Below are positions 1-50,718 of a stretch of DNA of 52,166 bases, one piece after another. The first letter of the stretch is position 1; the number at the start of each line of letters is the position of its first letter. The notes under the pieces were generated by a model. The model saw only the letters and a list, made by a program, of their open reading frames with translations, was not told the origin of the DNA and ran no database searches. The DNA is from a virus (taxonomy: Duplodnaviria; Caudoviricetes): positions 1 through 52,166 of the IMG/VR virus record IMGVR_UViG_3300032288_002130. One strand, given 5' to 3'. A program made the translations under genes and the position numbers.

Positions 1-1743
1 CCTAGTACATTTACAGATGCTACTGATTCGACCAGCACAAGCACAGGGTCGGTTGTTATTTCTGGTGGATTAGGTGTAGCCAAAAACTTATACGTAGGTG
101 GAAACTTAATTGTATCCGGCACTACAACTACTATTAACACAGCTAATTTAAACATTGCCGATAATCTTATAACTTTAAACAGCGATTTTACCAGCGGTAC
201 ACCTACTGAAAATGCAGGTATTGAAGTTAAACGTGGCGCACAAGCTACCACTGCAATTCGTTGGTTAGAAAATGGAACCAGCGGTAAGTGGCAAATTACC
301 AATGACGGAACAAACTATTACGATATCCGTTTTGGTTCAGCAACTATCAGTTTGAGTACAGAAACATCTGGAAATTATGTGGCCGCAGTATCCGCAGGAA
401 CAGGTATTACAATTAGCGGTAGCGGAGCAAGCAATGCTACTGTTACTGTTACTAACGCAGGTGTAACCAGCAACGTAGCAGGTACAGGTATTAGCGTAAG
501 TGGAGCAACTGGCGCTGTTACAATTACCAACACAGGCGTAACTAGTATATCTGCTACAAGTCCAATTGTGGCCAGTGCCAGCACAGGCGGTGTTGCACTA
601 AGCCACGCAAACAGCGGTGCTGTTAGTGGAACATACGGAGCTGGTAATGCTATTCCAGTTATTGCAGTTAACGCTACTGGACATATTACAAGTCTAAGTA
701 CAACGACATTAAGCGCACTACAAACAGTACAAGCAGTCGATAGTGATAGTGGATATTCATGGAGCTCAACTGGAACCAGCGCAGTTGGAACTAACCTCCG
801 TGTAGTCAGCGGTACTGGTATTGACGTTGACGTAGATACTGCTAACGTTGCTTTACGTGTAACTAACACTGACAAGGGTAGCAGTCAAAGTATTTTTAAA
901 AATATTGCGGATAGTGGCGGCACAGTACAATTCAGTGCAGGATCAAACAGCGACAATCTAAGATTTGCAGGAGGCGGCATTGCTAGTGTAAGTTTTAATA
1001 GTACCAATAAGTCAGTAACTATTACAGCAACAGAAGCAGATACATTAAGTAGCGTAACTGGCCGCGGCAATAGTACAGGTAGTGCAATCAGTATTACTAA
1101 TACAACAGGTAGCTCAGGTACAACTACTGGTGCTTTAGTAGTCAGTGGCGGTATTGGAGCAGGCTATAGTAACTTTGCTGGCCTAGGCACAACTGCAAAA
1201 ATTACACCGCGTATGACAGGTGTGTCATTGGCCTCAGGCAACAGTAGTCAACTTGAAATTAACAACGCAGGTAGCGGAGCATGTAACATCAGTTTCCATA
1301 GAGAAGGCGTATACGGTGCTCACTTTGGTTTAGACACCGATAACTGGTTCAGCACATATGGCTGGAGTGCAGGCTCTGGTTATACAGCTATGCGCCACGG
1401 TGAACTAGATGTTCGTGGCGGCATTACTGCTACAGGCGAAGTTACTGCTTATTCGGATGTTAGACTAAAAGAAAATATTCAGTTAATTCCAGATGCTCTA
1501 AACAAAGTCCTTCAACTTCGTGGTGTAACATTTACTCGTATTGACACTAAAACACATGGCACTGGTGTAATTGCTCAGGAAGTACAAAAGGTATTACCAG
1601 AAGCAGTTAAGGTTGGACATGAAGATGATATTCTAACTGTTAACTACGGAAGCATGGTAGGTCTATTGATTGAAAGTATCAAAGACCTTAAAGCAGAACT
1701 AGATGCTGTAAAAGCAGAATTAGCAGAATTACGCGGCCAGTGA
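1..1743 (+). CDS. Tail fibre protein with C-terminal intramolecular chaperone (peptidase S74-like), 5'-truncated by window edge
   Basis: Frame 1 is open from base 1 (PSTFTDATDSTSTSTGSVVISGGLGVAKNL...), so the CDS extends beyond the ORF-track start at 352. Gly/Ser/Thr-rich repeats; C-terminal YSDVRLKENI...GVIAQEV...VNYGSMVGLLIESIKDL plus coiled coil is the typical S74 chaperone signature. Confidence 0.88.
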   Translation, partial: PSTFTDATDSTSTSTGSVVISGGLGVAKNLYVGGNLIVSGTTTTINTANLNIADNLITLNSDFTSGTPTENAGIEVKRGAQATTAIRWLENGTSGKWQITNDGTNYYDIRFGSATISLSTETSGNYVAAVSAGTGITISGSGASNATVTVTNAGVTSNVAGTGISVSGATGAVTITNTGVTSISATSPIVASASTGGVALSHANSGAVSGTYGAGNAIPVIAVNATGHITSLSTTTLSALQTVQAVDSDSGYSWSSTGTSAVGTNLRVVSGTGIDVDVDTANVALRVTNTDKGSSQSIFKNIADSGGTVQFSAGSNSDNLRFAGGGIASVSFNSTNKSVTITATEADTLSSVTGRGNSTGSAISITNTTGSSGTTTGALVVSGGIGAGYSNFAGLGTTAKITPRMTGVSLASGNSSQLEINNAGSGACNISFHREGVYGAHFGLDTDNWFSTYGWSAGSGYTAMRHGELDVRGGITATGEVTAYSDVRLKENIQLIPDALNKVLQLRGVTFTRIDTKTHGTGVIAQEVQKVLPEAVKVGHEDDILTVNYGSMVGLLIESIKDLKAELDAVKAELAELRGQ

Positions 1744-22164: not shown

Positions 22165-23754
22165 ATGAATTTACGCAAATACATTGATATTATCAACGAA
22201 GCATCTAAGTCTCCGGACTTATCAGATATCGATCCTGAGTTACAGGACGTAGCAGAATATGTTGTTAGCCATGATATTAGCCAAAACGTTATGGCTAGTA
22301 TGGTTCAGTATCTAACTAAGATGGTACAAGCTGACCAGCAAGCTGATCAGCAACAAGTAGATCAACCCGACCAAGAACCTGTAGAACCAGAAGTAGTGCC
22401 TAGTCCAGAACCAGCAGAAGAGCCAGCTGTAAAAGAAGCCGAAGAAGCAGAAGCTGATCAAGGTACTAAAATGCAATTTCTCAGTCTGTTGAGTCAAGTT
22501 GACCCTAACAGAAAAGACCAAATTTGGGCCTACATGAACAAAGAGCAAATTGAAGATTATATTGTTCCAGCTTTAATAGAAAAAGATATTAATAGAGAAG
22601 ATGATCATCAGCGCATAGTTAGTTTGTTCGTTGAAGCTCCTGGTTCGTTAGAAGACAAGGTTGCTCTTGCAATGAAATTAGATACTACTGGGGAACGTCC
22701 TAACACTGGCGGCGGCATTATCAATACTAAGAAACTTACCACACAAGGTAAGGGTAGTATTAATGATTTAATTAATGTTAAGAAAACTCCTTTAATTGAT
22801 TACATTAAAGAACGTTTGATTAGAATGCGTGTGTATCCAAGTACAACATCTGCCGCAACTGGCGACGGCGAAGCGTTCTTTTTGATTTTAGGTGCTGGTA
22901 TTAGTAAGCGAGGCAAAGGTGACTTAAACGTTGCTAATATGAATAAAAAAGACAAGCTACACAATCCAAGTCCTTTAGAAATTAACGGTAAAGAAGTTGA
23001 AGTTAAAGCTCTGGGCGCACGCCTTAAAGGCTTTGGTGGTAAGGGTACTTACGGTGACGGTGCTTCTTATTACAAAACATTCAATCAAGATCTTATTAAT
23101 ATCATTGGCCAGGAAGGTAACAATTATCTAGGTCAATTATTACCAGGATCAAAAGCCACTGGCGGTTGGGGCAACGGTAAAAACCCATTACACTTTGGAT
23201 TACAAAACCTTCATGCACTATCAACCGTACTAAAAGAATTCTCAAAGAAAAATGGTGCTACACCTAAAGACGTTAGAGCTATGTTCTTAGGAATGATCAA
23301 ACATGTCTATCCTAAAATTGAACCAGACATGTACAACGACTTATTAAAAACTATTGACAAGTTTGGTAGTTTTAACGTCGAGGAGTTCCGCAAGCAATGG
23401 TTCTTAATGACCTACAAGTATTATATGGAAACCAGCAGAGACGATACTGGGCAGACCTATGATGGTATCTTGTTTATTCACCAAGGTGATTTTACTTACT
23501 CTTATATCAAAGGCCCCGAAGCAATGAGTGAACAATGGGGCGATTTTGAATTAAGTACAACATTGTATAACTGGACCGATACGCAAAGTGTTGCTCCGAA
23601 AATTACCTACGGTAAAGAAGACAGACCTAGCAAGAAGCCTAAGAAATCAGCCAAGACAGGATCTCCTACAAAAGATCTAGCACCAGAGTTAGCCAAAACT
23701 ACAGCGGCCCGGACTAAAAAAGCTCCAGTGGCCATGACTCGAACACTAAAGTAA
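22165..23754 (+). CDS. Late-expressed protein with internal-protein-like leader and PD-(D/E)xK-like motif
   Basis: TAAATA at 22140; MNLRKYIDIINEA leader; GDGEAFF...KGDL...EVEVK pattern. Confidence 0.7.
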   Translation: MNLRKYIDIINEASKSPDLSDIDPELQDVAEYVVSHDISQNVMASMVQYLTKMVQADQQADQQQVDQPDQEPVEPEVVPSPEPAEEPAVKEAEEAEADQGTKMQFLSLLSQVDPNRKDQIWAYMNKEQIEDYIVPALIEKDINREDDHQRIVSLFVEAPGSLEDKVALAMKLDTTGERPNTGGGIINTKKLTTQGKGSINDLINVKKTPLIDYIKERLIRMRVYPSTTSAATGDGEAFFLILGAGISKRGKGDLNVANMNKKDKLHNPSPLEINGKEVEVKALGARLKGFGGKGTYGDGASYYKTFNQDLINIIGQEGNNYLGQLLPGSKATGGWGNGKNPLHFGLQNLHALSTVLKEFSKKNGATPKDVRAMFLGMIKHVYPKIEPDMYNDLLKTIDKFGSFNVEEFRKQWFLMTYKYYMETSRDDTGQTYDGILFIHQGDFTYSYIKGPEAMSEQWGDFELSTTLYNWTDTQSVAPKITYGKEDRPSKKPKKSAKTGSPTKDLAPELAKTTAARTKKAPVAMTRTLK

Positions 23755-27101: not shown

Positions 27102-28556
27102 ATGACAAATTGCGTAATACAGATTAAAGATGAAGTAAACGTAAAAATACATGGACTCGATCCCGGAATTCGACGGGACTTGGAAAAGAAGCTAAAGTTT
27201 TTTCAGCCTCATGCGTATCATACACCTGCATACAAGTTAGGTCGATGGGACGGATGCGTAGGCTTCTTTAGTTTATCGGGCGCCACTTATTTAAATTTAC
27301 TTGATCGAATACTGCCTACTATTATCGACGAAGGCTATGCAGTAGAAATACAAGACGATAGACCAAGTCACGACTTCAAATTTGATGTTGTTACCGAAGA
27401 GTTTCATGAAGGCAAAGTGTGGCCAAAAGGGCATGTTAAAGAAGGTCAGCCTATTGAGCTTAGAGACTATCAAGTAGAGATTTGCAATAACTTTGCTAAC
27501 AACTTACAATGTATCCAAGAAGTAGCAACAGGCGCCGGCAAAACTATCATGACTGCGACTATGAGCATGATGGTGGAGCCCTATGGACGCACTATTGTTA
27601 TAGTGCCAAACAAAGATCTTGTTAGGCAAACAGAAGAAGATTATATTAATTTAGGATTAGATGTAGGTGTATATTTTGGAGACAAAAAAGACTTAGGCAA
27701 AACACATACTATTGCTACTTGGCAAAGTTTGATGAGCTTAGAGAAACGGTATGCTGAAGGTACCAGCGAGTTGAGCCTAGATGAATTCGCAGAAGGCATA
27801 GTAGCAGTAATAGTCGATGAAGTACATATGGCCAAAGCTGATGTGCTAAAAAAGCTATTATCGGGCTCTTTTGCCAAGTGTCCTATTCGTTGGGGATTGA
27901 CTGGAACCGTACCTAAGGCAGATTATGAACAGGCTACTCTAACAGCCTGCATAGGTAATGTTATTCATTATCTAAGTGCTAGTCAATTGCAAGAGCAAGG
28001 CGTACTAGCAGAGTGTCAAGTAAACATTGTGCAGTTACAAGACACAGTAGAGTACCCAACATATCAAGAAGAACTGACCTATTTAACAACTAACGCAAAG
28101 CGAATTAACTATCTAGCTACACTGATAAAAACTATCAGTGAAAGCGGTAATGTGCTAGTACTAGTAGACAGAGTAAAGTCTGGAGAGATGCTAGTAGAGC
28201 AATTAGATGACAGTGTATTTGTCAGCGGCACAATGAACAGCAAGAACAGAAAGTCCGAATATGACGAAGTTAAAACAGCTACTAATAAGATTATTGTGGC
28301 GACTTATGGTGTGGCCGCTGTGGGTATTAATATCCCTAGGATTTTTAATTTGGTTCTGGTGGAACCCGGAAAGAGCTTTGTCAGAGTTATACAAAGCATT
28401 GGGCGAGGTATTAGGAAAGCAGAAGACAAGGACTTCGTCCAGATCTGGGATATAACTAGTACAGCAAAATTTGCCAAGCGTCACCTAACAGTTAGGAAAA
28501 AATACTACCAAGAGGCCAAGTATCCTTATGTAATAGAAAAAGTACAATATAGATGA
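27102..28556 (+). CDS. uvsW: SF2 DNA helicase UvsW
   Basis: GRWDG, LRDYQ, ATGAGKT, DEVH, GLTGT, QSIGRGIR motifs. Confidence 0.93.
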   Translation: MTNCVIQIKDEVNVKIHGLDPGIRRDLEKKLKFFQPHAYHTPAYKLGRWDGCVGFFSLSGATYLNLLDRILPTIIDEGYAVEIQDDRPSHDFKFDVVTEEFHEGKVWPKGHVKEGQPIELRDYQVEICNNFANNLQCIQEVATGAGKTIMTATMSMMVEPYGRTIVIVPNKDLVRQTEEDYINLGLDVGVYFGDKKDLGKTHTIATWQSLMSLEKRYAEGTSELSLDEFAEGIVAVIVDEVHMAKADVLKKLLSGSFAKCPIRWGLTGTVPKADYEQATLTACIGNVIHYLSASQLQEQGVLAECQVNIVQLQDTVEYPTYQEELTYLTTNAKRINYLATLIKTISESGNVLVLVDRVKSGEMLVEQLDDSVFVSGTMNSKNRKSEYDEVKTATNKIIVATYGVAAVGINIPRIFNLVLVEPGKSFVRVIQSIGRGIRKAEDKDFVQIWDITSTAKFAKRHLTVRKKYYQEAKYPYVIEKVQYR

Positions 28557-29056
28557 GTAGAATTTTAACAATAGACAACGAGTTATTCGATATGAATAAC
28601 TTGCCAGATGAGATAGACGATTTAAGATACGGCGTACTAGATTACAGTGATCCAAACAATGTAGATTATTTGTTTGTACCCTTAGTGTTTTTAGAAAGCT
28701 TCAATGCCCCTAGTGCAGTAATGCGTATAGGTCGTCATCAATTTCAAATGCCATTAGATTGGAGTATGATTATTGGGGAGCCAGAAATAGGAGAACCAGA
28801 AATTGTTCCGATTATGAGTTTGAACGATAGGGGTTTTAAAGCGTTTATCCTAAATCCTTTTACTGCTTACATGCCTAAGTTTGAAACAGTAGAGATTGTA
28901 AATGTCTATCCAGAGATCAAGTGGTATTTTCCTAAACTCAAATACGGACATTTATTAACTGTACCGTTATGCGAAGGACCAAATCCTCCCTGCGCTTATT
29001 TCGTCAAAGAAACACAAAAGTTACCTGAAATACTTGAACTGCATAAACTATTCTAA
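28553..29056 (+). CDS. Hypothetical beta-rich protein (possible degenerate Hint fold)
   Basis: ATGA-coupled to uvsW, 167 aa; fold guess from residue pattern only. Confidence 0.7.
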   Translation: MSRILTIDNELFDMNNLPDEIDDLRYGVLDYSDPNNVDYLFVPLVFLESFNAPSAVMRIGRHQFQMPLDWSMIIGEPEIGEPEIVPIMSLNDRGFKAFILNPFTAYMPKFETVEIVNVYPEIKWYFPKLKYGHLLTVPLCEGPNPPCAYFVKETQKLPEILELHKLF

Positions 29057-29067: not shown

Positions 29068-29544
29068 ATGGCTACCGTAAAAGATCATAAGATTAATCTA
29101 ACAACAATGCTAGGGGCAATGGACCGCCGCCAAGTAGATTGGTTTGATAAGTTAGACGAAGATCAAAAGAAGGAATTTGAGCCGTGGATGGCTATGCGTT
29201 TTTGTAGTAGTGCTGATGGCAGTCAAGGCATCAAAGAGCATTACTTACTATGCACTAATGATTTTGTTAATAAGAATTTCGGTGCTATTAGTCTTAAAGA
29301 ACATAAAGAGTTACACTGGTTAAGTTTGCGTACAGTAGGTATAGGTAAAAGTGTTATACATCCTTTTATCAAACCACCCAAACGTGCTCCAAAAAATAAA
29401 CTACAAACTTGGCTAACTGAACAGTTTCCACACCTTAGCAATGACGAAATAGATCTTATGATTTCTGTTAACACTAAAGAAGCGTTAATGGATTATGCTA
29501 GACAATTAAACCTTGACCCAAAACAAATTAAAGAATTGTTTTAA
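29068..29544 (+). CDS. Putative clamp-loader small subunit (gp62-like)
   Basis: EFEPWMAMRFCS...HPFIKPPK...EQFPHLS pattern resembles gp62-type helical subunits; weak. Confidence 0.45.
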   Translation: MATVKDHKINLTTMLGAMDRRQVDWFDKLDEDQKKEFEPWMAMRFCSSADGSQGIKEHYLLCTNDFVNKNFGAISLKEHKELHWLSLRTVGIGKSVIHPFIKPPKRAPKNKLQTWLTEQFPHLSNDEIDLMISVNTKEALMDYARQLNLDPKQIKELF

Positions 29545-30218
29545 TGCATCAATGTAAGTATTGTAAAAAATCATTTGCCAAAGAGTCTACACTAATGACT
29601 CATATGTGCGAGAAAAAACGTAGGAAAATGGGCGAGTATGATAAAGTTAATCGCTTGGCATTTAACATATGGTTAAAGTTTTGTAAGTTTGCCAGTCCTA
29701 CAAGTAAGAAACAAAAAACATATGATGACTTTATTGACAATAGATATTACACTGGTTTTTTAAAATTTGCCAGACATTGTATGGACCTAAGTCCTTATGA
29801 TTTGGAAAGTTTTGTAGACTTTATATTTCGCAATGCAGTAAAGATGGATGACTGGTGCAAGAACTATGTCTATGAAATGTATGTGAGAGAAAACAATAAA
29901 AAGGAATCTGTTGACAGAGCCGCAGAGCGTGTTATATTATTAATGCAAAACTGGAGCGAACAAACAGGCCATCCTTGGACAGAGTTCTTTGATCAAGTAA
30001 ACACTAATCAAGCTACCCAGTGGATTATTACTGGTAGAATCAGTCCATGGATAATATATGGCAGTCAAGCAGGACAACGATTAGTTGATAGATTAAATGA
30101 AGAACAGTTAATGTTAGTAGCAGAAAACATAGAGCCAAAGTATTGGCAGTTTAGACTAGCACGTAACAAACAAGACACAGAGTGGATTGAACAAACTTTT
30201 AATAAGGCAGGAATATGA
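29544..30218 (+). CDS. Protein with N-terminal C2H2-like zinc finger
   Basis: CKYCKKSFAKESTLMTHMC = C-x2-C-x3-F-x5-L-x2-H-x-C. Confidence 0.75.
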   Translation: MHQCKYCKKSFAKESTLMTHMCEKKRRKMGEYDKVNRLAFNIWLKFCKFASPTSKKQKTYDDFIDNRYYTGFLKFARHCMDLSPYDLESFVDFIFRNAVKMDDWCKNYVYEMYVRENNKKESVDRAAERVILLMQNWSEQTGHPWTEFFDQVNTNQATQWIITGRISPWIIYGSQAGQRLVDRLNEEQLMLVAENIEPKYWQFRLARNKQDTEWIEQTFNKAGI

Positions 30219-30457
30219 ATTCAAATCAGTATAATAAACCTATGCCCAAACGCACACCAACACCTAAGCCAGCCATGCAGGTTGCAGTACTTAACGAAGC
30301 AGTCAAAGAAGTAACCATTGACGGCAAAAGTGTAAAGTTAGCCGACCCCAAGTATGTTAAAAAGTTAGAAACTAGGATTGAAAGACTAGAAACTAAGTTA
30401 GCTAATTTGGCTGAACAAAATCGTTGGCTTATGCAACAAGTTAAGAAAATTAAATGA
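30215..30457 (+). CDS. Small coiled-coil protein
   Basis: Heptad YVKKLETRIERLETKLANL; ATGA overlaps at both ends. Confidence 0.7.
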   Translation: MNSNQYNKPMPKRTPTPKPAMQVAVLNEAVKEVTIDGKSVKLADPKYVKKLETRIERLETKLANLAEQNRWLMQQVKKIK

Positions 30458-31041
30458 TTAACAGTACCGACATTGATATTGACGTAGCAGACAGAGATCA
30501 ACTGCTAAAATTAGTTCCCCATGTGTCGGCAATGCAACGCGACGGAGAACGTCAGCGTAAACATAATACCGGGGTATATTTTCACCAAGCTCCTATTAAT
30601 CCACTAACAGGTATGTGTAGCATCGACTATAACGAAGCCGAGCAAGTTGGTTATTTTAAGATAGACATACTTAATGTTGGACTTTATAAAAACATTACCG
30701 ATCCTAATCACTTAGACAAGTTGGCTGCTCAAGAACCTATGTGGGAGTTGTTGGAGCAACCTGAAATTGTAAGCCAACTGTTTCATTTAAGCAACCACAG
30801 TGAAATTACTTGTGCGATGAAACCCAAGAGTCTAGAAGAATTAGCTATGTTGCTGGCTATCATTCGTCCAGGGAAAAGTCATTTGAGATATAAGCCATGG
30901 TCGGAGGTTCGCAGTCAAGTGTGGAACAAGCCTGAAGATGGCAGTTATTACTTTAAGAAAAGCCATAGCTTTGGATATGCAATGGCCATTGTAGTGCAGT
31001 TGAATTTAATAGTAGAGCAACTATTAAACGCTAAAACTTGA
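30454..31041 (+). CDS. Minimal family-C (DnaE / Pol III alpha-like) DNA polymerase core
   Basis: [51 protein letters not shown] are collinear with the DnaE motifs PDFDVD, KHAGGV, GLVKFDFLGL, VFQL, ALFRPG, YGFNKSH. Confidence 0.85.
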
Positions 31042-31347
31042 TCCGCAACCGCAGGTTGTTTGGGCATTGGGATTGTTAATTACAAACTGCTTGCTCATAA
31101 AGTCGTCCAAGTAATCAATCTGTGCTCCTTCCAAATACTGAGCACTCATACTGTCTACTAAAATATCAATTCCTTCGCGACCTACATTCCAGTCATCTTC
31201 GGCTTTTTCAGTATCTAGAGCAAACCCATATTGAAATCCCGAGCATCCTCCGCCTTGTACAAATACCCTAAGACAGGTTCCAGCAGGTTCTGATACCAAA
31301 ACTTCCCGGACAGCATTTATTGCAGATTCGGTGATAACTAAGTTCAT
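31024..31347 (-). CDS. erpA: A-type Fe-S cluster carrier (ErpA/IscA, HesB family)
   Basis: [17 protein letters not shown] and [14 protein letters not shown] with the three conserved Cys. Confidence 0.93.
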
Positions 31348-31748
31348 TCCATTTTCCTTACTAGTTGAATTTGTCTACGTTTAATTCTCTTGGTAATAAT
31401 ATTGCTAAGGCTAACAGTGGGTCCGTATAAAATTTCAAAATCTTTAGGGTTAAATGTCCTTAGGCTGTAGCTAAAGACTTTAAACTTTTCGCCCAAGATT
31501 AAATTAATAGGCAACATTCGATTGCTGGCCCACCACCACTCGTCTCCCATTTCTAAAAAGCTCTGCTTATGCTCATTGCTGTGCAATAAGTTGTACATAT
31601 ACATAGAGACAATGGTGGAGTCTTGATTTTGTATAATACCTACGTATTCGTTCCCGCCGTACCTGCATAGGCTTAAAAATGGGAATCGATCTAGTAATTC
31701 TTGGTATTCTTCCTTCAATGTTGGCATATTTTGTATAAGTTTATCCAC
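31344..31748 (-). CDS. Hypothetical protein
   Basis: Coupled to erpA; start is GTG 31748 or ATG 31727; minus-strand TAAATA at 31752-57. Confidence 0.7.
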
Positions 31749-31794: not shown

Positions 31795-32343
31795 ATGATT
31801 ACAATATTCCAGCATGTACCACGAATTCAGGTTCTGCTAGCAACCGATCACAAAAACTATAATACGCCTATGAACGACATTAAATTACAAGCAGTCAAAG
31901 GGCTAGACAATCCTTTAGAAATTCAAATATTAAACAGCGACCGAAGGGCTGTAAAATTGCCCGGAAAAACTGTAAAAATGGTACTAAGCAAAGTTGCTGA
32001 CAATAGTGTCTATTTAGAAAAAGCAATGCTAACGGTCAATGCAGATCAGGGAATTTTTCGTAGCGAACTAGCGGGAATTGAGTTAGAAGATGTTCCCGTT
32101 GGGCTAGCACAAATTGCGTTTTATGTGGAAGATCATGCAGGGAAAAAGACTCCGTTAACAAAAAATCTAGCCGGCAAATATGCAGTTGATATCAATATTG
32201 TACAAGGTCCATACACGATTCCTGTAGATGACCTTGAAGATGATTATGGTTTAGTTTCAACAGAAAATAATGCTATAGAAGATTTTGGTTCTATTACAGA
32301 ACCTGTAGAACAATTAGAAGACGAGTTTAGGGATACGCTATGA
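31795..32343 (+). CDS. Putative baseplate / fibre-attachment protein (BppU-like Ig domain)
   Basis: KGLDNPLEIQILN...VKMVL...G.F...L beta pattern; TAAATA boxes at 31762 and 31785; heads the fibre cluster. Confidence 0.5.
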   Translation: MITIFQHVPRIQVLLATDHKNYNTPMNDIKLQAVKGLDNPLEIQILNSDRRAVKLPGKTVKMVLSKVADNSVYLEKAMLTVNADQGIFRSELAGIELEDVPVGLAQIAFYVEDHAGKKTPLTKNLAGKYAVDINIVQGPYTIPVDDLEDDYGLVSTENNAIEDFGSITEPVEQLEDEFRDTL

Positions 32344-35300
32344 CCCAAAGAACAACAAAACAATTAAAATTGCGCCGCGGCAATACAGCCGAGCATTCAA
32401 ATTTTGTAGGAGCAGTAGGAGAAATAACTGTTGATACAGATTTAAAAACCATTAGAGTTCATGACGGTTCTACAGCAGGCGGCTTTCCTTTAATGCGAGG
32501 TGATGCCACTATAAATTCTATACCGTGGACAAGCGTTACTAACCGCCCAACTTTGTTCAGTGGTGCTTATGCTGACTTAACTGGTAAGCCTACATTGTTC
32601 AGCGGTGATTATGCAGACTTAACTAACAAACCTACATTGTTTAGTGGTGATTATGCAGACTTAACTAATAAGCCAACTATTCCTGAAGTTCCAACAGATG
32701 TCAGCGCATTCACTAATGATTCTGAATATGTTACATCTACACAATTGTCTAATTCAACAGCCGGTCTAGTCCAATTGCTAACAAATAGCCTTGCGCTAAA
32801 AGCTAATATTAATCAAATTCCTGTAGTCCCCACCGATGTTAGTGCATTTAATAATGATGCCAACTATGCTACAGAAACGTATGTTAACAATGAAATTAAT
32901 TCACTTATAAATGGTGCTCCTGGTGCGTTAAACACGTTAAACGAACTGTCATTAGCACTGTCGAACGATGAAAACTTTTCAACAACTGTTGTCAACTCTT
33001 TAGCAAACAAAGTAAACTCTGACGATCTTGCACTAGTAGCAACAACAGGTAGTTATACAGACCTAACCAATAAACCGACGGTATTGGCAATTGCTCCGCA
33101 GTGGACTGCCAATCATACATTGTTACCTGGCGGAGAAAATACACGTTATCTAGTAGGAGATGCAGTATATAACAATGGAAATATCTATGTCGCTAATTAT
33201 GAAAACGAAAGCATGCCTGTTAGCGATCCTATATACTGGACAAACATTGGTACAGGAAACCGATTGAATATAGACGGTCGTGATATTCCTAACATTACTT
33301 ACGACCAGTTAACTAATAAGCCAACTATACCAGCTGACGTTAGTGACTTAACTGATACAACTAACTTATTGAGTGGCGGCGGCATTAATACGGGCTATTT
33401 TAGATTTAATAATAACATTTTATATACTAATGCCGGACAAAGCATTTACATTGACCCTAGCAACGACGAAGGAGATACCGGATTTATCTTTGTGCCTGGG
33501 CCAGGCACAGCTGATATAGATCCTGTACAAATTTACAATCAATTGTCAGGCGGTGTACGAATTGGTAGTAGCGATAGTCTTTGGACATTTGGTTCAAGTG
33601 GTACATTGACATTACCAAATAACACAACTGTCGGCAACAATCTAGAAGGTACATATTCAAGTTCGTTCCTTTGTTTACCATGGGGTGTCAACGATCAAAC
33701 CAGCGGACTCTTTTCATCTAATAGTATTACCCGTCCATTGTTTAATCCACTTATCTCCACAATATCCGTTGGATGGTTTGTAAGTGGGCCAGGGTTAAGT
33801 GGCGTTAAAGAAATCACAGATATAGTAGAAATGGGCGAGGGAGATCGAGCATTCATAGTAGATCTAACCGATGGATCACTTTGGGCAGATCTCAGCGTTA
33901 ACATTCCTTACAGATTCTATTCACCAGATTATGCTCTTACACTCAATGGTACTAAATTAACAGTTAATTCAAATGAATGGAAGTTCAATCAAGCCGGTCA
34001 TCTAACTGTACCCGGTGACATTCATGAGAAGGTAGGCAATGATTTAGAAATAGCCGTTCACAATAATCGAAACAATGATGGTACACCCGGTAGTGCAGTT
34101 TTATCATTAACAAATAATGATGCGGTTGACTCCCAGACCTATACAACTCTTGAAGTAGGTGCTTATGGTATTAAGTTAAACACTGACTACGAGGGTGTGT
34201 TTACTGGTGCTAGACGCACATGGGAATTTAAACGAAACGGTACATTAACATTTCCAGATTTAACAGAACAAACTACCGCTTGGACTGGTTCAGTATCTTT
34301 AATAAGTAGCGGACCTACAGCACCCGGTAGTGCTGTTGTGGCTGGAGAAAATGATGTAGATTTTAATTTTAGTGATGGCGTTAGCACAGCAGTTAGTGTA
34401 ACTAGAAACAGTGAAATTGTTTCATCAAAGCCAGCAGGATTAACACTGGCGTCAAATTTTGATGTAAAAATTGTAACAGATTTTACAGATAACAATCGTA
34501 CCTGGACATTTGAAGGCTCAACAGGAAATGTAGAGTTACCGAGAGGTAGTATTATTGGAGAAACAAGCAATACTACAATTATCACACCTCCTACAGCAAC
34601 TCCAGACCAAAGTCTAGTTATTCGTCCAACTGCATCTCAGTGGACTATAGAGTCTAGTGGTTTTGTTGTTTATGGTAGTCCTATTACAATTACTTTAACC
34701 TTGCAAAGCTGGACATACTTTGGAACAGTTAACTATGAAATCACTGGTCCGGGTGTAACCGAGCAATCGCTGGGTCGTCCATTGACTGGTAAATTAATTT
34801 ATGCAGGAGTTTATGGAGGCCCTGATGCACAGTCAGTTACTTGGACTATACCTGCTCAAAGCAATATAACAGAATTTACTTTTACAGTAACTGGAGTTGA
34901 TGGTGTACCATCAACTGGCCCAGGTGAAACAGATCCGGCGTTGTATTATAACTTTGAATTCAATGCAATGCCTACTGGTTATGCTACTACAGTAACTAAC
35001 AACGGCATATCTAACACAGAATTCAGTCATATACATTTAGTAGCCGGAGATCCTGTAACAGTTGACCTTTATCTAGGCGATGACGATCAATATGTTAAGA
35101 TTGAAAAGAATGCTGGCGATGTAGTAATTGGCACTAACGCAAATACTAAAAATTGGAGATTTGGCACAGACGGTATATTAACATTTCCAGGCGGAGCCAA
35201 TATAATAGATCTACCAGGAGCAACATTAGACGATAGTGCATTGATTTTAGGTGCAGGCACTACGATCAATGAAAATGTAAGAGCGGCTCGCATAGCAGTG

Positions 35301-36155
35301 AATGGTAGTGTAGAAGGTGTAGCCATTGGTGCTGGTGCTAATGATTGGACATTTACCAATGACGGCAAACTACATTTGCCCACAGGTGGAGACATTGTAG
35401 ACAGTGGTGGCGTCAGCGTATTGGGCGGTGGTGGTGGCTTTAGCGGTAACTATAATGATCTTACAAACAAGCCAACTTTATTTGATGGAGCTTACAGTAG
35501 CCTAACAGGAACACCCACACTAGCTACAGTAGCAACCAGTGGCGCTTATGCTGACTTAACTGGTAAGCCAACACTAGCTACAGTAGCAACCAGCGGCAGT
35601 TATACTGATTTATCTAATACTCCTGCTCCTTACAGTTTACCAACTGCAACAGGATCAGTGCTAGGCGGTGTTAAGATTGGGCCGGGAATTTCTATCGACG
35701 GTAACGGAGTAATCAGTACCACTAACACCACTAACCAAAATACATCTACAACTAGCAACGTAACATTTAACAACGTTACAGCAACAGGACAGATTGTAGA
35801 AAGTTTCCAAACATACAGTACTTCTATAGGATCCGGAGAAACCGTTACACTTAATTGTGCTAACGGAAATCTATGGAACGTAACAAGTACTGTAGCAGGT
35901 AACTGGACTGCCGCAGTAACTAACTTTGCAATAACCTTAGGACAAGCATCTAGTGTAACATTAATCATTAATCAAGGTGCTACGGCGCATTTGCCAACTA
36001 CATTGACAATTAACGGCACAGCTACAACTATTAACTGGCAAGGTGGCGCTGTTCCTGTAGGTAACAATAACAAAAAAGATATCATGTCCTTTAGTGTTTT
36101 ACAAACAGGAGCAAGTGCATATCTAGTATTTGGTCAATTGGTAACGTTTGGATAA
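32340..36155 (+). CDS. Modular tail fibre protein with Mtd-N-like N-terminal anchor
   Basis: QLKLRRGNTAEH...GAVGEITVDTD...VHDG; SGxYxDLTNKP repeats; APGALNTLNELS motif; six WxFxxxGxLxxP-type repeats. Confidence 0.85.
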   Translation: MTQRTTKQLKLRRGNTAEHSNFVGAVGEITVDTDLKTIRVHDGSTAGGFPLMRGDATINSIPWTSVTNRPTLFSGAYADLTGKPTLFSGDYADLTNKPTLFSGDYADLTNKPTIPEVPTDVSAFTNDSEYVTSTQLSNSTAGLVQLLTNSLALKANINQIPVVPTDVSAFNNDANYATETYVNNEINSLINGAPGALNTLNELSLALSNDENFSTTVVNSLANKVNSDDLALVATTGSYTDLTNKPTVLAIAPQWTANHTLLPGGENTRYLVGDAVYNNGNIYVANYENESMPVSDPIYWTNIGTGNRLNIDGRDIPNITYDQLTNKPTIPADVSDLTDTTNLLSGGGINTGYFRFNNNILYTNAGQSIYIDPSNDEGDTGFIFVPGPGTADIDPVQIYNQLSGGVRIGSSDSLWTFGSSGTLTLPNNTTVGNNLEGTYSSSFLCLPWGVNDQTSGLFSSNSITRPLFNPLISTISVGWFVSGPGLSGVKEITDIVEMGEGDRAFIVDLTDGSLWADLSVNIPYRFYSPDYALTLNGTKLTVNSNEWKFNQAGHLTVPGDIHEKVGNDLEIAVHNNRNNDGTPGSAVLSLTNNDAVDSQTYTTLEVGAYGIKLNTDYEGVFTGARRTWEFKRNGTLTFPDLTEQTTAWTGSVSLISSGPTAPGSAVVAGENDVDFNFSDGVSTAVSVTRNSEIVSSKPAGLTLASNFDVKIVTDFTDNNRTWTFEGSTGNVELPRGSIIGETSNTTIITPPTATPDQSLVIRPTASQWTIESSGFVVYGSPITITLTLQSWTYFGTVNYEITGPGVTEQSLGRPLTGKLIYAGVYGGPDAQSVTWTIPAQSNITEFTFTVTGVDGVPSTGPGETDPALYYNFEFNAMPTGYATTVTNNGISNTEFSHIHLVAGDPVTVDLYLGDDDQYVKIEKNAGDVVIGTNANTKNWRFGTDGILTFPGGANIIDLPGATLDDSALILGAGTTINENVRAARIAVNGSVEGVAIGAGANDWTFTNDGKLHLPTGGDIVDSGGVSVLGGGGGFSGNYNDLTNKPTLFDGAYSSLTGTPTLATVATSGAYADLTGKPTLATVATSGSYTDLSNTPAPYSLPTATGSVLGGVKIGPGISIDGNGVISTTNTTNQNTSTTSNVTFNNVTATGQIVESFQTYSTSIGSGETVTLNCANGNLWNVTSTVAGNWTAAVTNFAITLGQASSVTLIINQGATAHLPTTLTINGTATTINWQGGAVPVGNNNKKDIMSFSVLQTGASAYLVFGQLVTFG
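32547..32678 (+). repeat. 42-nt tandem repeat x3 (PTLFSGxYADLTxK)
   Basis: Visible at DNA and protein level in the fibre gene. Confidence 0.85.
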
Positions 36156-40615: not shown

Positions 40616-41626
40616 ATGAGCCTTGTGCAGGATTTTTTACGACAGCATTTACCTAGTCAGAAAGTAAACCCCAGCGGATGGGTTAGCTTTAACTGTCCTG
40701 TCTGCACGAGTAACGGGCAAGCAAGACCAGACACTAAACGTAGAGGCGGCGTTAGATTTCCTGACTCAGACAGCTTTCAATATAATTGCTTTAACTGTCA
40801 TTTTACAACTGGATGGAGCCCGGGCAAAAATCTCAGCAGTAGAGTCAAGCAGTTGTTTAAAGGACTGGGAGTCAGTGAAGCAGACGTTCAACGACTGCAA
40901 ATTGAACTGATGCGAGAAAATGAAACTAAGGCATTTTTAGAACAGTCATTTAAAAATGCCAATAGAGAAAAATTCAATCCCAATTGGAACACAGTTAAGT
41001 TACCCTATGGTAGTGTTCCTATAAACAGTGTCTCTAATGAATACACGCAGGCTGCTCAGCAATATTTGTCTAATAGGAAAATCTTAAATTATGCTGATTG
41101 GTATTGGGCAGACAGCGATGTGCATAATTTATACAATAGAATTGTCTTGCCCTTAACATATCAAAATAACATAGTAGGCTATCATGCACGTTGGATAGGC
41201 AAGCCGCCTACAAAAGAAACAGCTAAGGTTATCAAAGAGCAACCAAGAGATTATGTATACGGTATTGACCAACAAACAGACTTGCGTAAATATGTTCTCG
41301 TCATGGAAGGCGAATATGACGCAGTAGCAATCAGCGGAGTTAGTACTGGTAGCAATCGTATAAGTCGTAATCAAGCTGACATAATCGAAAGCCTTGGTAA
41401 AACAATCATAGCTGTACCTGACAGAGATAGAGCAGGTCGAGACTTTGCAGAAGATGCCATTGAATACGGATGGAGCATTAGTATCCCCGAATGGGACAGC
41501 GGAATTAAAGACGTTGCAGATGCAGTAGAACAATATGGTAGACTGTTTGTGTTAAAAACGATAATTGACAGCCAAGAGTCTAATCCTATAAAATCAAAAG
41601 TAATAGTGAGAACACATTGTGAGTGA
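40616..41626 (+). CDS. gp61: DNA primase (gp61 / DnaG-type)
   Basis: CPVC...CFNC zinc ribbon; TOPRIM VMEGEYDA and PDRDRAG; KDVADA. Confidence 0.9.
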   Translation: MSLVQDFLRQHLPSQKVNPSGWVSFNCPVCTSNGQARPDTKRRGGVRFPDSDSFQYNCFNCHFTTGWSPGKNLSSRVKQLFKGLGVSEADVQRLQIELMRENETKAFLEQSFKNANREKFNPNWNTVKLPYGSVPINSVSNEYTQAAQQYLSNRKILNYADWYWADSDVHNLYNRIVLPLTYQNNIVGYHARWIGKPPTKETAKVIKEQPRDYVYGIDQQTDLRKYVLVMEGEYDAVAISGVSTGSNRISRNQADIIESLGKTIIAVPDRDRAGRDFAEDAIEYGWSISIPEWDSGIKDVADAVEQYGRLFVLKTIIDSQESNPIKSKVIVRTHCE

Positions 41627-43121
41627 CACAAAAGAATATCTAGAAGACATACAAAAACTATTTTTGGAGTTCCTGATCAGCGACAAGGAACTATTAGCAC
41701 GTACTAATGCGATTATTAATCCTGAGTATTTTCATAGGACATTAAGACCCGCTGCCGAGTTTTTAGTTAGCTATGCTAACGAATATACTGCGGTTCCCAG
41801 TCCCGAACAAGTCAAAGCAACCACAGGCGTTGATCTAGCAGTACATCCTACTTTAAACTCGGACCATCATCAGTGGTTTTTAGATGAGTTTGAACAATTT
41901 TGCAAGTACAAAGCCCTTGAGAAAGCTATTCTTAAATCAGCAGACTTGCTAGAGAAAAACGACTATGGTAAAGTAGAACGTCTAATCAAAGAAGCAGTAG
42001 AAGTAGGACTGGCTAAGAGCTTTGGTACAGATTACTTTGAAGATCCCGCAGCCAGACTGCAAGCACTAAAAAGTCGTAACGGCGGAACAACTACAGGTTG
42101 GAAATCAGTAGACGACAAACTATATGGTGGTTTTAATAGGGGTGAGTTAAACATCTTTGCTGGTGGATCTGGCGCAGGTAAATCCTTATTCTTGCAGAAC
42201 TTGGCTTTAAACTGGAGCCAAGCAGGATTTAACGTAGTGTATCTAAGTTTAGAACTTAGTGAAGGATTATGTAGTTTACGTATGGACAGTATGTTAACTG
42301 GGACCAGTACTAAAGAAATCTATAGGAACTTAGACGATGTTGATTTGAAAGTTCGTATGGCAGGCAAAAAGTCTGGAAAATTACAAATTGTACAGTTGCC
42401 AAACGGCATTAACGTTAATGATTTAAAAGCATGGCTTAAAGAATATACCATTCAAAAGGGTGTTAAAGTAGACTGCATTGTCATTGATTACTTAGATTTG
42501 ATGATGCCCGCAGGCCAAAAGATCAGCGTATCGGACTTGTTTATCAAAGACAAACTAGTATCAGAAGAATTGCGTAACTTTGCTATGCAGGGCAATTACT
42601 TTTTAGCCACAGCATCGCAGTTAAACAGGGCCGCAGTAGAAAGTGTAGAATTTGATCATAGCCATATTTCGGGCGGTTTAAGTAAGATTCAAACAGCGGA
42701 TAACGTTATTGGTATCTTTAACAGCATTACTATGCGCGAACGCGGACGTATTCAAATACAGTTTATGAAAACACGTAGTAGTAGCGGTGTTGGCCAAAAA
42801 GTAGAATTAGCCATTGATATTAATACTTTGCGTATTTCCGATGTTGATGAAAATGACGTTGCTCCGCCCAGTAGTGCTGATGTGATGTTTAACAAACTAA
42901 AACGTCAAGCACAGCAAGAAACAGCAGGATCAACTAGTGGTCCGTTGGATGTAACAAAAGCACCATGGGCGGGTGACCGCCCTACTGGCACACCTGCTTG
43001 GGAAAAACCAGCTCAGCAACTGGGCCAACAAGCAGAATTGAATGCTATTAGACGAGAAAATAGTACCGTTTCCTCTGTTATAGACCGCAGTGAGCAATTA
43101 AGAAATCTGTTGAAAAAGTAA
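41619..43121 (+). CDS. gp41: Replicative helicase (gp41 / DnaB family)
   Basis: TTGW, GGSGAGKS, SLELSE, VIDYLDLM, TASQLNR, TADNVI, KTR motifs. Confidence 0.93.
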   Translation: MSDTKEYLEDIQKLFLEFLISDKELLARTNAIINPEYFHRTLRPAAEFLVSYANEYTAVPSPEQVKATTGVDLAVHPTLNSDHHQWFLDEFEQFCKYKALEKAILKSADLLEKNDYGKVERLIKEAVEVGLAKSFGTDYFEDPAARLQALKSRNGGTTTGWKSVDDKLYGGFNRGELNIFAGGSGAGKSLFLQNLALNWSQAGFNVVYLSLELSEGLCSLRMDSMLTGTSTKEIYRNLDDVDLKVRMAGKKSGKLQIVQLPNGINVNDLKAWLKEYTIQKGVKVDCIVIDYLDLMMPAGQKISVSDLFIKDKLVSEELRNFAMQGNYFLATASQLNRAAVESVEFDHSHISGGLSKIQTADNVIGIFNSITMRERGRIQIQFMKTRSSSGVGQKVELAIDINTLRISDVDENDVAPPSSADVMFNKLKRQAQQETAGSTSGPLDVTKAPWAGDRPTGTPAWEKPAQQLGQQAELNAIRRENSTVSSVIDRSEQLRNLLKK

Positions 43122-43432: not shown

Positions 43433-44166
43433 AAATCAATGACTTAGGTATATTGTCCGAAGGTCCTTTAGATGCTCTAAAACAGTTTGGCCGAGCAATC
43501 GTTGACCCCACAGATAAGTCTGGTAAACAAGAATTTTACAAATATAAAACCAGTATGCAGACTCAGTTCCAACGCTGGGCCAATCAAACAGGCGCTGGTA
43601 AGCCAGATTTAAAAAACGAAGAATTGATTTGCCAATGGTTAACTGATCAGTATGGTCTAAGTCAAAAAGAACTAGCTGAAATAGGTTTAAACTGTGCCGC
43701 GGCAAAACCAGGTGCGGAAAAACCTGCAGGACCAAAAGGACAAGAAGAGCCAGGAAAAACTCCTCCCACCGAAGAACCCAAAGGACAAGCTGGGCCAGGC
43801 CCAACTCCAGGCGGCGAAACTCCAGCAGGCGAAGAACCTAAGCCAGGCGAAACTCCAGCAGGCGAAGAACCTAAAGCGGGAGAAACACCTAAGGCAGGCG
43901 AAGAACCTAAAGCAGAAGAAAAACCCGGACAGTTTGATTTTAAAGATCCTGCTAAGTTTAAAGCAGAATACGACAAGTACGTTGCGGCACAAAATGCAAA
44001 AAACAAGTCTAACGGCATGGGACCATTCCAACTTGGATCAGAACCACAATTACTATCTGTATTAAAACAAATGTGGATGCAAACAGGCGGAACAAAAGCA
44101 GAATCGACCACAAATAAAGGTCCAATTCTAAATGAATTTAAAAAGATATTGGCGGCAAAAAAATGA
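43429..44166 (+). CDS. Putative internal virion protein with GETPAGEEPK repeats
   Basis: MKINDLGILSE leader; Pro/Glu/Gly/Lys repeat linker. Confidence 0.7.
   Translation: MKINDLGILSEGPLDALKQFGRAIVDPTDKSGKQEFYKYKTSMQTQFQRWANQTGAGKPDLKNEELICQWLTDQYGLSQKELAEIGLNCAAAKPGAEKPAGPKGQEEPGKTPPTEEPKGQAGPGPTPGGETPAGEEPKPGETPAGEEPKAGETPKAGEEPKAEEKPGQFDFKDPAKFKAEYDKYVAAQNAKNKSNGMGPFQLGSEPQLLSVLKQMWMQTGGTKAESTTNKGPILNEFKKILAAKK
43810..43920 (+). repeat. About 33-nt imperfect tandem repeat (GETPAGEEPKP)
   Basis: GGCGAAACTCCAGCAGGCGAAGAACCTAA recurs about three times with variation. Confidence 0.75.
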
Positions 44167-50518: not shown

Positions 50519-50718
50519 GAGCAATAACTTTAGAAAACAATACCGCAGTATTGGTAAACAATGAAGAACATAAGTTATACGAGCGCATTGCTGTTGCTCC
50601 GGTGGCTCTTAAAGAATTAGACAGCAGGGACAAAGAAGTCAGTAAGCAGTTATTCATGAAGGGTCTGCTGAAAAAAGTTAAAAACGAAAATACAATTTAT
50701 TTTAAGGCAGTCAAATGA
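50515..50718 (+). CDS. Small protein, possible winged helix
   Basis: LDSRDKEVSKQLFMKGLLKKV...IYF; ATGA overlaps at both ends. Confidence 0.65.
   Translation: MRAITLENNTAVLVNNEEHKLYERIAVAPVALKELDSRDKEVSKQLFMKGLLKKVKNENTIYFKAVK

Follow-up and report, generated by a model that had tools for sequence, protein, structure and literature searches.

The C-terminal unit of a putative two-piece minimal DNA polymerase III alpha encoded by an uncultivated relative of the RaK2-like jumbo phages

The IMG/VR virus record IMGVR_UViG_3300032288_002130 was analyzed over its whole length of 52,166 bases (hereafter, the window), for which CheckV estimates a completeness of about 14%. An open reading frame (ORF) on the plus strand at 30454..31041, with ATG at 30454 and TGA at 31039–31041, encodes a protein of 195 residues. 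Because this ATG is the first start codon past the upstream in-frame stop, the ORF cannot be longer. The start codon overlaps the TGA of an 80-residue ORF just upstream as ATGA; at its other end, the ORF shares 18 bases with the 3′ end of an IscA-type gene that runs convergently. A D-I-D-I-D motif occupies residues 6–10, preceded by five residues. The length of the ORF, the position of this motif, and the coupled translation had been given in an initial annotation made from the sequence alone, and re-reading of the ORF confirmed them. Based on its PHROG profile (PHROG 11778), an AlphaFold model, and structural comparison with VIA, the ORF is assigned here as the coding sequence of the C-terminal (Mg2+- and template-binding) unit of a split minimal DNA polymerase III (Pol III) alpha, termed the C-unit. 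The separate N-terminal unit is termed the N-unit.

A split minimal Pol III alpha was described by Iyer et al. in 2021 (Viruses 13:63; PMC7824862) in the group 2.2 (RaK2/PA5oct/Atu_ph07-like) jumbo phages. The passages of that paper on this enzyme describe one unit as “C-terminal Mg2+- and DNA-template-binding” and a separate N-terminal NTP-binding unit encoded far off; they also state that the split Pol III alpha always occurs beside a family B polymerase and that the remaining domains of Pol III are missing, and they propose that it synthesizes one of the strands or takes part in repair. As far as these passages go, nothing essential differs between the C-unit of the window and the published C-terminal unit, the match having been made from the published description rather than from accessions. 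In PHROGs and in several GenBank records, the C-unit already carries the label “DNA polymerase.” The family to which the C-unit belongs has been known from sequence since 2021, and the C-unit is an ordinary member of it, not a new discovery; the copy in the window, which stems from a fragment of an uncultivated phage, shares at most 53% identity with the copy of any isolate. A search of the literature after 2021 on split or minimal phage Pol III brought up only the paper by Iyer et al., and the omics paper on PA5oct does not mention a DNA polymerase. New here are rare natural fusions of the N- and C-units, a predicted heterodimer of the two, the conservation of the steric-gate histidine, and a fixed gene neighborhood, and the exact break point between the units is an addition to the published account.

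The C-unit carries six DnaE motifs in the order of DnaE, including all three catalytic aspartates. The first two of these are D6 and D8 of the motif D6-I-D8-I-D10 (30469..30483; all motifs lie on the plus strand). By direct reading of the Escherichia coli protein, T5-D6-I-D8-I-D10 matches P400-D401-F-D403-V-D405, and D10 is the equivalent of D405, an additional aspartate specific to DnaE. The following motifs were mapped with an hhalign alignment to E. coli DnaE, which was used for residue mapping only: the palm motif K36-H37-N-T-G40-V41 (30559..30576) corresponds to K510-H511-A-G-G-V515, K69-I-D71 with the third catalytic aspartate (30658..30666) to K553-F-D555, an L-F-H block to the “vfqle” block, and the fingers motif R138-P139-G140-K141 (30865..30876) to R639-P640-G641. 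The fingers helix with the steric-gate histidine, F167-K-K-S170-H171-S-F-G-Y175-A (30952..30981), matches F756-N-K-S759-H760-S-A-A-Y764-A. This last match was obtained by direct reading of the E. coli protein and from collinear HMMER pieces on Mycobacterium tuberculosis DnaE1. Three such pieces were aligned collinearly, covering the DxD strand, the stretch from K-x-D to R-P-G, and the K-S-H helix. The motif order and the three aspartates of the initial annotation are therefore borne out, with D6, D8, and D71 as the counterparts of E. coli D401, D403, and D555.

Conservation of these residues was examined in an alignment of 94 sequences, consisting of the window protein and 93 of the 150 listed representatives at 50% identity (29–55% identical to the window protein and 179–231 residues long). 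The 57 listed rows left out were 51 fragments shorter than 179 residues, P0070 (already in alignment A1), the fused P0191, P0200 and P0236 (both 177 residues), and P0210, P0234, and P0253 (unrelated sequence at one end). D6, D8, K69, D71, and P139 are kept in all 94 sequences, H37 in 93, D10 and R138 in 92 each, and H171 in 91; the catalytic aspartates are invariant among the aligned sequences. According to the passages on the active site in PMC3919608, the catalytic Mg2+ is bound by D401, D403, and D555 of the E. coli enzyme, which show absolute conservation throughout the C family, and D405 is conserved in all DnaE groups, with Asn in its place in PolC. H760 is the proposed steric gate against ribonucleotides and, in the part of PMC8485763 that deals with it, is said to be invariant in Pol III alpha. 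The retention of the steric-gate histidine and D10 points to a DnaE-like, dNTP-selective active site, and the invariance of the Mg2+ ligands and K69 makes a noncatalytic role unlikely.

PHROG 11778 (“DNA polymerase”) matches residues 4–191 of the C-unit over profile positions 6–196 of 197 (E value, 2.6e-68). PHROG 405, a DnaE-type profile of 1190 positions, matches it at profile positions 579–679 (E 1.6e-6), and the C-unit of one relative touches PF07733 at positions 93–193 (E 3.6e-4, below the cut-off). The AlphaFold2 model of the C-unit has a mean predicted local distance difference test (pLDDT) value of 89.7 and a predicted template modeling score of 0.70. In a Foldseek search against the Protein Data Bank (PDB), the 13 best rows were all Pol III alpha, with the best E value of 1.8e-3 just short of the line drawn by the tool. 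In VIA, the 14 best rows were all C-family polymerases (Z score 9.5–6.2; 174–194 residues aligned; root mean square deviation, 4.9–5.9), followed by an unrelated fold at Z 4.0. The highest ranks were taken by Taq Pol III alpha (3e0d 458..841, Z 9.5), M. tuberculosis DnaE1 (5lew 416..854, Z 9.4), PolC (3f2b 968..1358, Z 9.0, 194 residues aligned), and E. coli Pol III alpha (2hnh 397..784, Z 8.8), and these four alignments take in 188–194 of the 195 residues. The model thus aligns from end to end with Pol III alpha and PolC. As judged from this predicted structure, which settles the question, the C-unit is DnaE-like; the direct sequence statistics against cellular DnaE are weak.

Compared with bacterial DnaE1 (E. 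coli Pol III alpha, 1160 residues; PDB 2hnh and 5fkv; Taq, 2hpi, 3e0d, and 4iqj), the C-unit has the same pol-beta-like palm and shares the equivalents of D401, D403, and D555, D405 (D10), K553, the K-H-x-G-G-V and R-P-G motifs, and the S759-H760 helix. It maps only to E. coli residues 397–784, a region that it spans with 195 instead of 388 residues, and it lacks the PHP, helix-hairpin-helix (HhH), clamp-binding, OB, and tau-binding parts as well as the thumb or any thumb-sized insert. Between the motifs, the C-unit has 79 fewer residues in the interval from D405 to K510, where the thumb presumably lies, 10 fewer from K510 to D555, 17 fewer from D555 to R639, and 88 fewer from R639 to F756. 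Because the polypeptide begins at the DxD strand, it is without the first palm strand and the G-S nucleotide-binding loop, which in the phages is on another polypeptide. The C-family fold is also common to the C-unit and PolC of Firmicutes (PDB 3f2b). The residue equivalent to E. coli D405 is Asn in PolC, as stated in the above passages of PMC3919608, whereas the phage C-unit has Asp in 92 of 94 sequences; on this point the C-unit is DnaE-like and not PolC-like.

The missing part of the palm was found on a separate gene in relatives. In Pseudomonas phage PAC2, positions 21–97 of PF07733 match a gene of 169 residues located 44 kb from the C-unit gene, and in Sinorhizobium phage Phosso the same positions match a gene of 177 residues at a distance of 224 kb. 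This N-unit corresponds to PHROG 11127 and carries the G-V-G-R-G-S-S sequence of the NTP-binding half. In RaK2, 121Q, CBB, GAP32, and PA5oct, the N- and C-unit genes are 31–44 kb apart by their tblastn coordinates, and the distance in the relatives overall is 22–224 kb. For phage CBB, a “truncated” DnaE-like protein of 172 residues (CBB_328) has been reported (PMC5259590), which probably corresponds to the CBB N-unit locus by size and description, though not by locus tag. Among phage records, tblastn found the N-unit in 98 and the C-unit in 96; a few of the 98 are full-length DnaE genes of Bacillus phages. The N- and C-unit records agree closely by genus: 34 and 34 in Escherichia, 11 and 11 in Pseudomonas, 8 and 8 in Salmonella, 8 and 8 in Erwinia, and 10 and 11 in Klebsiella. 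Three of five large IMG/VR contigs picked for the N-unit also hold the C-unit, 22–24 kb away. The split polymerase of which the 195-residue protein would be the catalytic piece, given as an alternative in the initial annotation, is therefore supported by the separate N-unit of the relatives and by the rare fusions described below. The domain losses that it had listed stand for the drastically reduced palm and fingers and for the absent PHP and C-terminal domains; the palm part with the G-S loop is encoded by a separate gene in the relatives.

The N-units end in E-F-L-K/N, equivalent to F391-L392-N393 of the E. coli protein. Of the 36 N-unit ORFs read from IMG/VR, all but two are 157–189 residues long; L116 (94 residues) is truncated at its 5′ end, and L119 (216 residues) has a long N-terminal extension. 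All 36 end 0–2 residues past E-F-L-K, in a sample whose ends are biased because one of the search patterns lies in this motif. The C-units start 2–12 residues before DxD. With the N-units ending at the equivalent of E. coli residue 393 and the window C-unit starting five residues before D6, the break falls in the seven-residue loop before D401, and the ends of the two units leave no room for intein halves. In cyanobacteria, the split-intein DnaE (cited in PMC3919608 as its reference 38) consists of full-size halves that are joined by protein trans-splicing. As in the phage system, dnaE is there present as two distant genes. Unlike the cyanobacterial split, the phage break lacks flanking intein sequence and falls inside the palm, and the halves are tiny.

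Both units occur as one polypeptide in three protein clusters. P0191, P0276, and P0277 are natural fusions of 375–376 residues from different sources and contigs (metagenomic contigs of 2.4–5.9 kb), and they are 78–81% identical to each other. The fusions join PHROG 11127 (residues 8–180) to PHROG 11778 (190–374) via a linker of ten residues, and PF07733 spans the junction (positions 12–121, E 4.8e-16). Such fusions are rare (one of the 150 listed representatives), and a search of IMG/VR with P0191 gave no relative of the fused form.

A complex of the window C-unit with the N-unit of IMG/VR locus L087 was predicted in three runs, each of which gave a score of 0.89, whereas the best of three controls scored 0.00. 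Of 80 solved complexes, 58 came up to that mark, as did 2 of 110 mismatched pairs; these counts hold only roughly for this job because custom alignments were used. The runs share at least 94% of the contacts, and the pLDDT of the partner is at least 87. In the predicted interface, residues 137–150 of the N-unit, including the G-V-G-R-G-S-S loop, face residues 5–13 (DxD strand) and 168–171 (S-H helix) of the C-unit. Since the two units are halves of a fold for which full-length structures have been solved, the positive result may only reflect likeness to them.

The C-unit is widespread in phages. All of the 96 phage records with a tblastn match cover at least 80% of the query, and the copies of isolates are 38–53% identical to the window protein among the matches listed. 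The carriers are jumbo phages of Escherichia, Pseudomonas, Klebsiella, Erwinia, Salmonella, Agrobacterium, and others. A C-unit homolog of 37.7% identity is present in Alishewanella phage vB_AspM_Slickus01 (OQ508957.1), whose genome of 141,644 bp is well below the 200-kb jumbo threshold. At the nucleotide level, megablast of 12 kb around the C-unit gene gave no match among phages. In a collection of 5.8 billion proteins, 7962 of the 8000 scored candidates (clusters at 90% identity) passed E 1e-3, and the length of the C-unit was 187–206 residues in the best 120 of the passing candidates. Among 1.84 billion representatives at 50% identity, 529 matched at E ≤1e-3 and 145 at ≤1e-30. Only two longer relatives were encountered, and both look like artifacts: P0272 has an unrelated N-terminal segment of 160 residues, and P0273 is a TolB chimera. 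A search of 185,579 species genomes turned up just eight C-unit loci (L147–L154). Each is on a contig from a metagenome bin, in keeping with a family confined to phages. The bins are aquatic and labeled Methylophilaceae, Polynucleobacter, Haliscomenobacter, Legionellales, Cloacimonadota, and others; the eight loci are probably phage contigs binned with bacteria.

The ratio of nonsynonymous to synonymous substitution rates (dN/dS) of the C-unit gene was 0.043 and 0.078 against orthologs of 85% and 81% identity, values that are rough because dS (1.7–2.5) is near saturation. On these sequence comparisons, the gene is maintained under strong purifying selection.

The family B polymerase that the initial annotation had expected in a T4-like setting was found in all of the five relatives that hold both units (open frames of 825–1013 residues), and a PHP domain in none of them. 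No family B polymerase gene was found in the window. As the window is only about 14% of the genome, the lack of both this gene and the N-unit gene there is uninformative.

The C-unit gene lies in a conserved module. On the plus strand, the module opens with a UvsW-type DNA helicase gene (27102..28556), followed by genes for a 167-residue protein of PHROG 11279 (28553..29056), a 158-residue protein of PHROG 11758 (29068..29544), and a 224-residue protein of PHROG 11058 with an N-terminal C2H2-type zinc finger (29544..30218). Between the last of these and the C-unit lies the 80-residue coiled-coil ORF (30215..30457, plus strand), which is present only in the closest relatives, L009 and L010. The convergent gene on the minus strand at 31024..31347 encodes an IscA/ErpA-type iron–sulfur cluster protein (PF01521, E 3.3e-18) and, among 73 IMG/VR loci, adjoins the C-unit gene only in the same two relatives. 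It is followed by a conserved convergent gene of 134 residues (31344..31748, minus strand; PHROG 11637, no Pfam match). Farther downstream, the replication module contains genes for a DNA primase (40616..41626) and a DnaB-like replicative helicase (41619..43121), both on the plus strand. The order UvsW, PHROG 11279, 11758, 11058, C-unit, 11637 (reverse), primase, and DnaB is kept over the 73 loci and is the same in PAC2 and Phosso. The PHROG 11058 gene is upstream of the C-unit gene and the PHROG 11637 gene is downstream of it in 70 of the 73 loci each, and the three misses on each side have less than about 750 bases of flank there.

The PHROG 11058 protein has a C-x2-C...H-x-C zinc finger in which C4, C7, H20, and C22 are invariant, and its model is all-helical (pLDDT 94.3). 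Neither a DnaE domain lost from the polymerase nor an established replication factor could be recognized in it, as no significant structural match was found (best Foldseek E value, 1.4; best VIA-wide Z score, 4.6, which is noise). Its residues 122–224 align with the C-terminal domain of the T4 gp59 helicase loader over 96 residues at Z 3.9, at noise level and of interest as a lead only. A Pfam search of seven flanking ORFs at E values up to 0.1 gave nothing DnaE-like and no PHP, only weak zf-C2H2 and coiled-coil matches and the one IscA-type Fe–S domain.

Besides the UvsW helicase, primase, and DnaB genes, the window contains genes for the tail sheath, the tail tube, and the large terminase, with synteny as in PAC2 and Phosso, a content in keeping with a T4-like jumbo phage. 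Large tail-fiber-like proteins are encoded at 32340–36155 and 1–1743 (plus strand), and the 1271-residue tail-fiber-like protein has several near-identical copies of K-P-T-L-F-S-G-x-Y-A-D-L-T near both ends. ORFs of 529, 936, and at least 484 residues at 22165–23754, 44163–46973, and 50715–52166 (plus strand) have no PHROG match at E 1e-3.

A different reduced form of C-family polymerase was found on the 86-kb IMG/VR contig G005, which encodes a DnaE-like protein of 548 residues (L086:1004–2650, minus strand) next to DnaB, as well as a 186-residue C-unit (L086:7649–8209, minus strand). The 548-residue protein has its own G-S loop and DxD and K-x-D motifs. Like the C-unit, such phage DnaE-like polymerases (PHROG 405 region 362–845) are reduced, lack PHP, and belong to a DnaB-adjacent replication module. 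Unlike the C-unit, the L086 protein is a single chain that scores above the Pfam thresholds (148 bits for PF07733 and 55 bits for PF17657) and has retained the G-S loop along with a region the size of a thumb. The phage of this contig therefore has two different reduced C-family polymerase genes.

Taking these results together, we consider the C-unit to be the C-terminal unit of the two-piece minimal Pol III alpha of RaK2/PA5oct/Atu_ph07-like jumbo phages, probably paired with the N-unit as an accessory polymerase. The assignment to the family, the kept motifs, the fold, the purifying selection, and the association of the two genes in genomes are shown by the comparisons; the formation of the heterodimer, its polymerase activity, and its cellular role are what we infer. 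The C-unit would supply the DxD strand (D6 and D8) and the third catalytic aspartate (D71, near K69) of the pol-beta-like palm together with cut-down fingers consisting of the R-P-G motif and the helix of the steric-gate histidine (H171). The nucleotide-binding G-S loop and the first strand of the palm would come from the N-unit (~160–190 residues, PHROG 11127), encoded elsewhere, and the two units would rebuild one active site of about 365 residues. Because neither half carries an intein, the halves most likely join noncovalently. It is highly probable that the C-unit pairs in this manner with an N-unit from elsewhere in this phage and that one pol-beta-like active site is rebuilt. Since the Mg2+ ligands, the triphosphate-contacting lysine, and the deoxyribose-selecting histidine are all kept, addition of deoxynucleoside triphosphates (dNTPs) to a primer on a template is the most likely reaction of the complex, an assignment that, resting on conserved residues, we favor with some reserve. 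As the thumb, PHP, clamp-binding, HhH, and OB parts are absent, the complex would serve alongside the family B replicase as a polymerase of the short-patch or accessory kind. Its role would be in repair, in recombination-dependent replication, or in work on primers or the lagging strand, possibly with the help of the conserved neighbors.

Several observations weigh against this interpretation. In the direct comparisons with cellular enzymes, PF17657 (the Pol III alpha finger domain) reached 13.9 bits on the C-unit with a cut-off of 22, and PF07733 was not reported for it in the Pfam search. An HMMER profile of 35 relatives found M. tuberculosis DnaE1 in the PDB at E 0.12, level with estrogen-receptor noise, so that only the collinearity of the three pieces is informative in that result; the single C-unit protein gave a chance match (E 1.1) among the sequences of solved structures. 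The hhalign alignment of residues 35–141 with E. coli 509–642 has an E value of 0.0052 and a probability of 6.9%. The reduction is also severe: the E. coli span from D401 to A765 has 365 residues and its equivalent in the C-unit 171, about 194 fewer. The stretch that leads from the R-P-G motif to the S-H helix is shorter by 88 residues, which may remove contacts required to bind the nucleotide or the template, and the lack of any thumb, HhH, clamp-binding, or OB element leaves stable DNA binding unexplained. In P0210 (194 residues), unrelated sequence replaces the DxD part, although this looks like a chimeric gene call. As to the partner, the N-unit is absent from the 52-kb window, where neither PF07733 at E values up to 10 nor the PAC2 N-unit as the query gave a match, and its presence in the phage of the window is inferred from the relatives; the L087 N-unit of the complex prediction is accordingly a heterologous, noncognate one. 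The other two of the five N-unit contigs showed no C-unit (completeness 47% and 66%), and four of five large contigs with a C-unit showed no N-unit (completeness 25–50%). The matches obtained when seeking the N-unit on the latter five were the C-unit itself (two contigs) and the 548-residue DnaE-like ORF, which is unrelated. Finally, a search of the literature, with subscription journals and supplements largely out of reach, found no biochemical or genetic test of either unit.

The main alternative is one in which the N- and C-units do assemble but act as another kind of nucleotidyltransferase, such as a terminal transferase, a modifier of DNA ends or proteins, or the maker of a nucleotide signal, or as a noncatalytic scaffold of the replisome. 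The parts by which cellular Pol III alpha holds the duplex (thumb, clamp-binding, HhH, and OB) and about 88 residues of the fingers are gone, the phages already own a full family B replicase, and the literature search gave no activity data. We nevertheless regard this alternative as unlikely, because the Mg2+ ligands and K69 are invariant, 91 of 94 sequences retain the steric-gate histidine and the helix of the fingers that in DnaE is turned toward the nascent base pair, and the gene is located in a fixed helicase–primase module.

That the 195-residue protein works by itself as a palm-only nucleotidyltransferase, the self-sufficient minimal enzyme of the initial annotation, is very improbable. 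The confident fold of the protein by itself in the model (pLDDT 89.7), the presence of all three aspartates, and the absence of an N-unit within 30 kb upstream or 21 kb downstream could be taken in its favor. However, the G-S loop and the first palm strand are located on a co-distributed separate protein of 157–189 residues, which is fused to the C-unit in three clusters, and the predicted interface buries the active-site residues 5–13 and 168–171. If the gene were a bacterial dnaE in decay after its capture, or one exon of a gene split by an intron or an intein, it would be far shorter than cellular DnaE and fall below the Pfam thresholds as the C-unit does, but this reading can practically be dismissed, in line with the initial argument against simple decay, in view of the dN/dS of 0.04–0.08, the constant length of 187–206 residues in the best 120 matches, the invariant active-site residues, the absence of further DnaE or PHP pieces from the flanking ORFs and the whole window, and the lack of space for intein halves.

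The accessory polymerase proposed here can be extended to a bolder and rather doubtful form, in which the N- and C-units would constitute the smallest functional C-family DNA polymerase (two chains of about 365 residues in all, 375 when fused) and the dedicated second polymerase of a family B replisome, with the PHROG 11058 and 11637 proteins replacing the lost thumb and the clamp- and DNA-binding domains. Such a second polymerase would, for example, extend primers on the lagging strand or in recombination-dependent replication. If this were true, the ancestral core of Pol III would have a living model, as suggested in the passages of Iyer et al. cited above (PMC7824862), and there would be a natural phage replisome with two polymerases.

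The C-unit family represents the most reduced known form of the catalytic core of the bacterial replicase and is very common in environmental jumbo phages. With an active site that is strictly conserved in the aligned sequences, the C-unit is still well suited to biochemical study. Should an active enzyme arise from the two halves, this would define the minimum for C-family polymerase chemistry, and a bacterial-type polymerase would then be in use even in phages that have a eukaryote-like family B replicase, which bears on ideas about the origin of Pol III.

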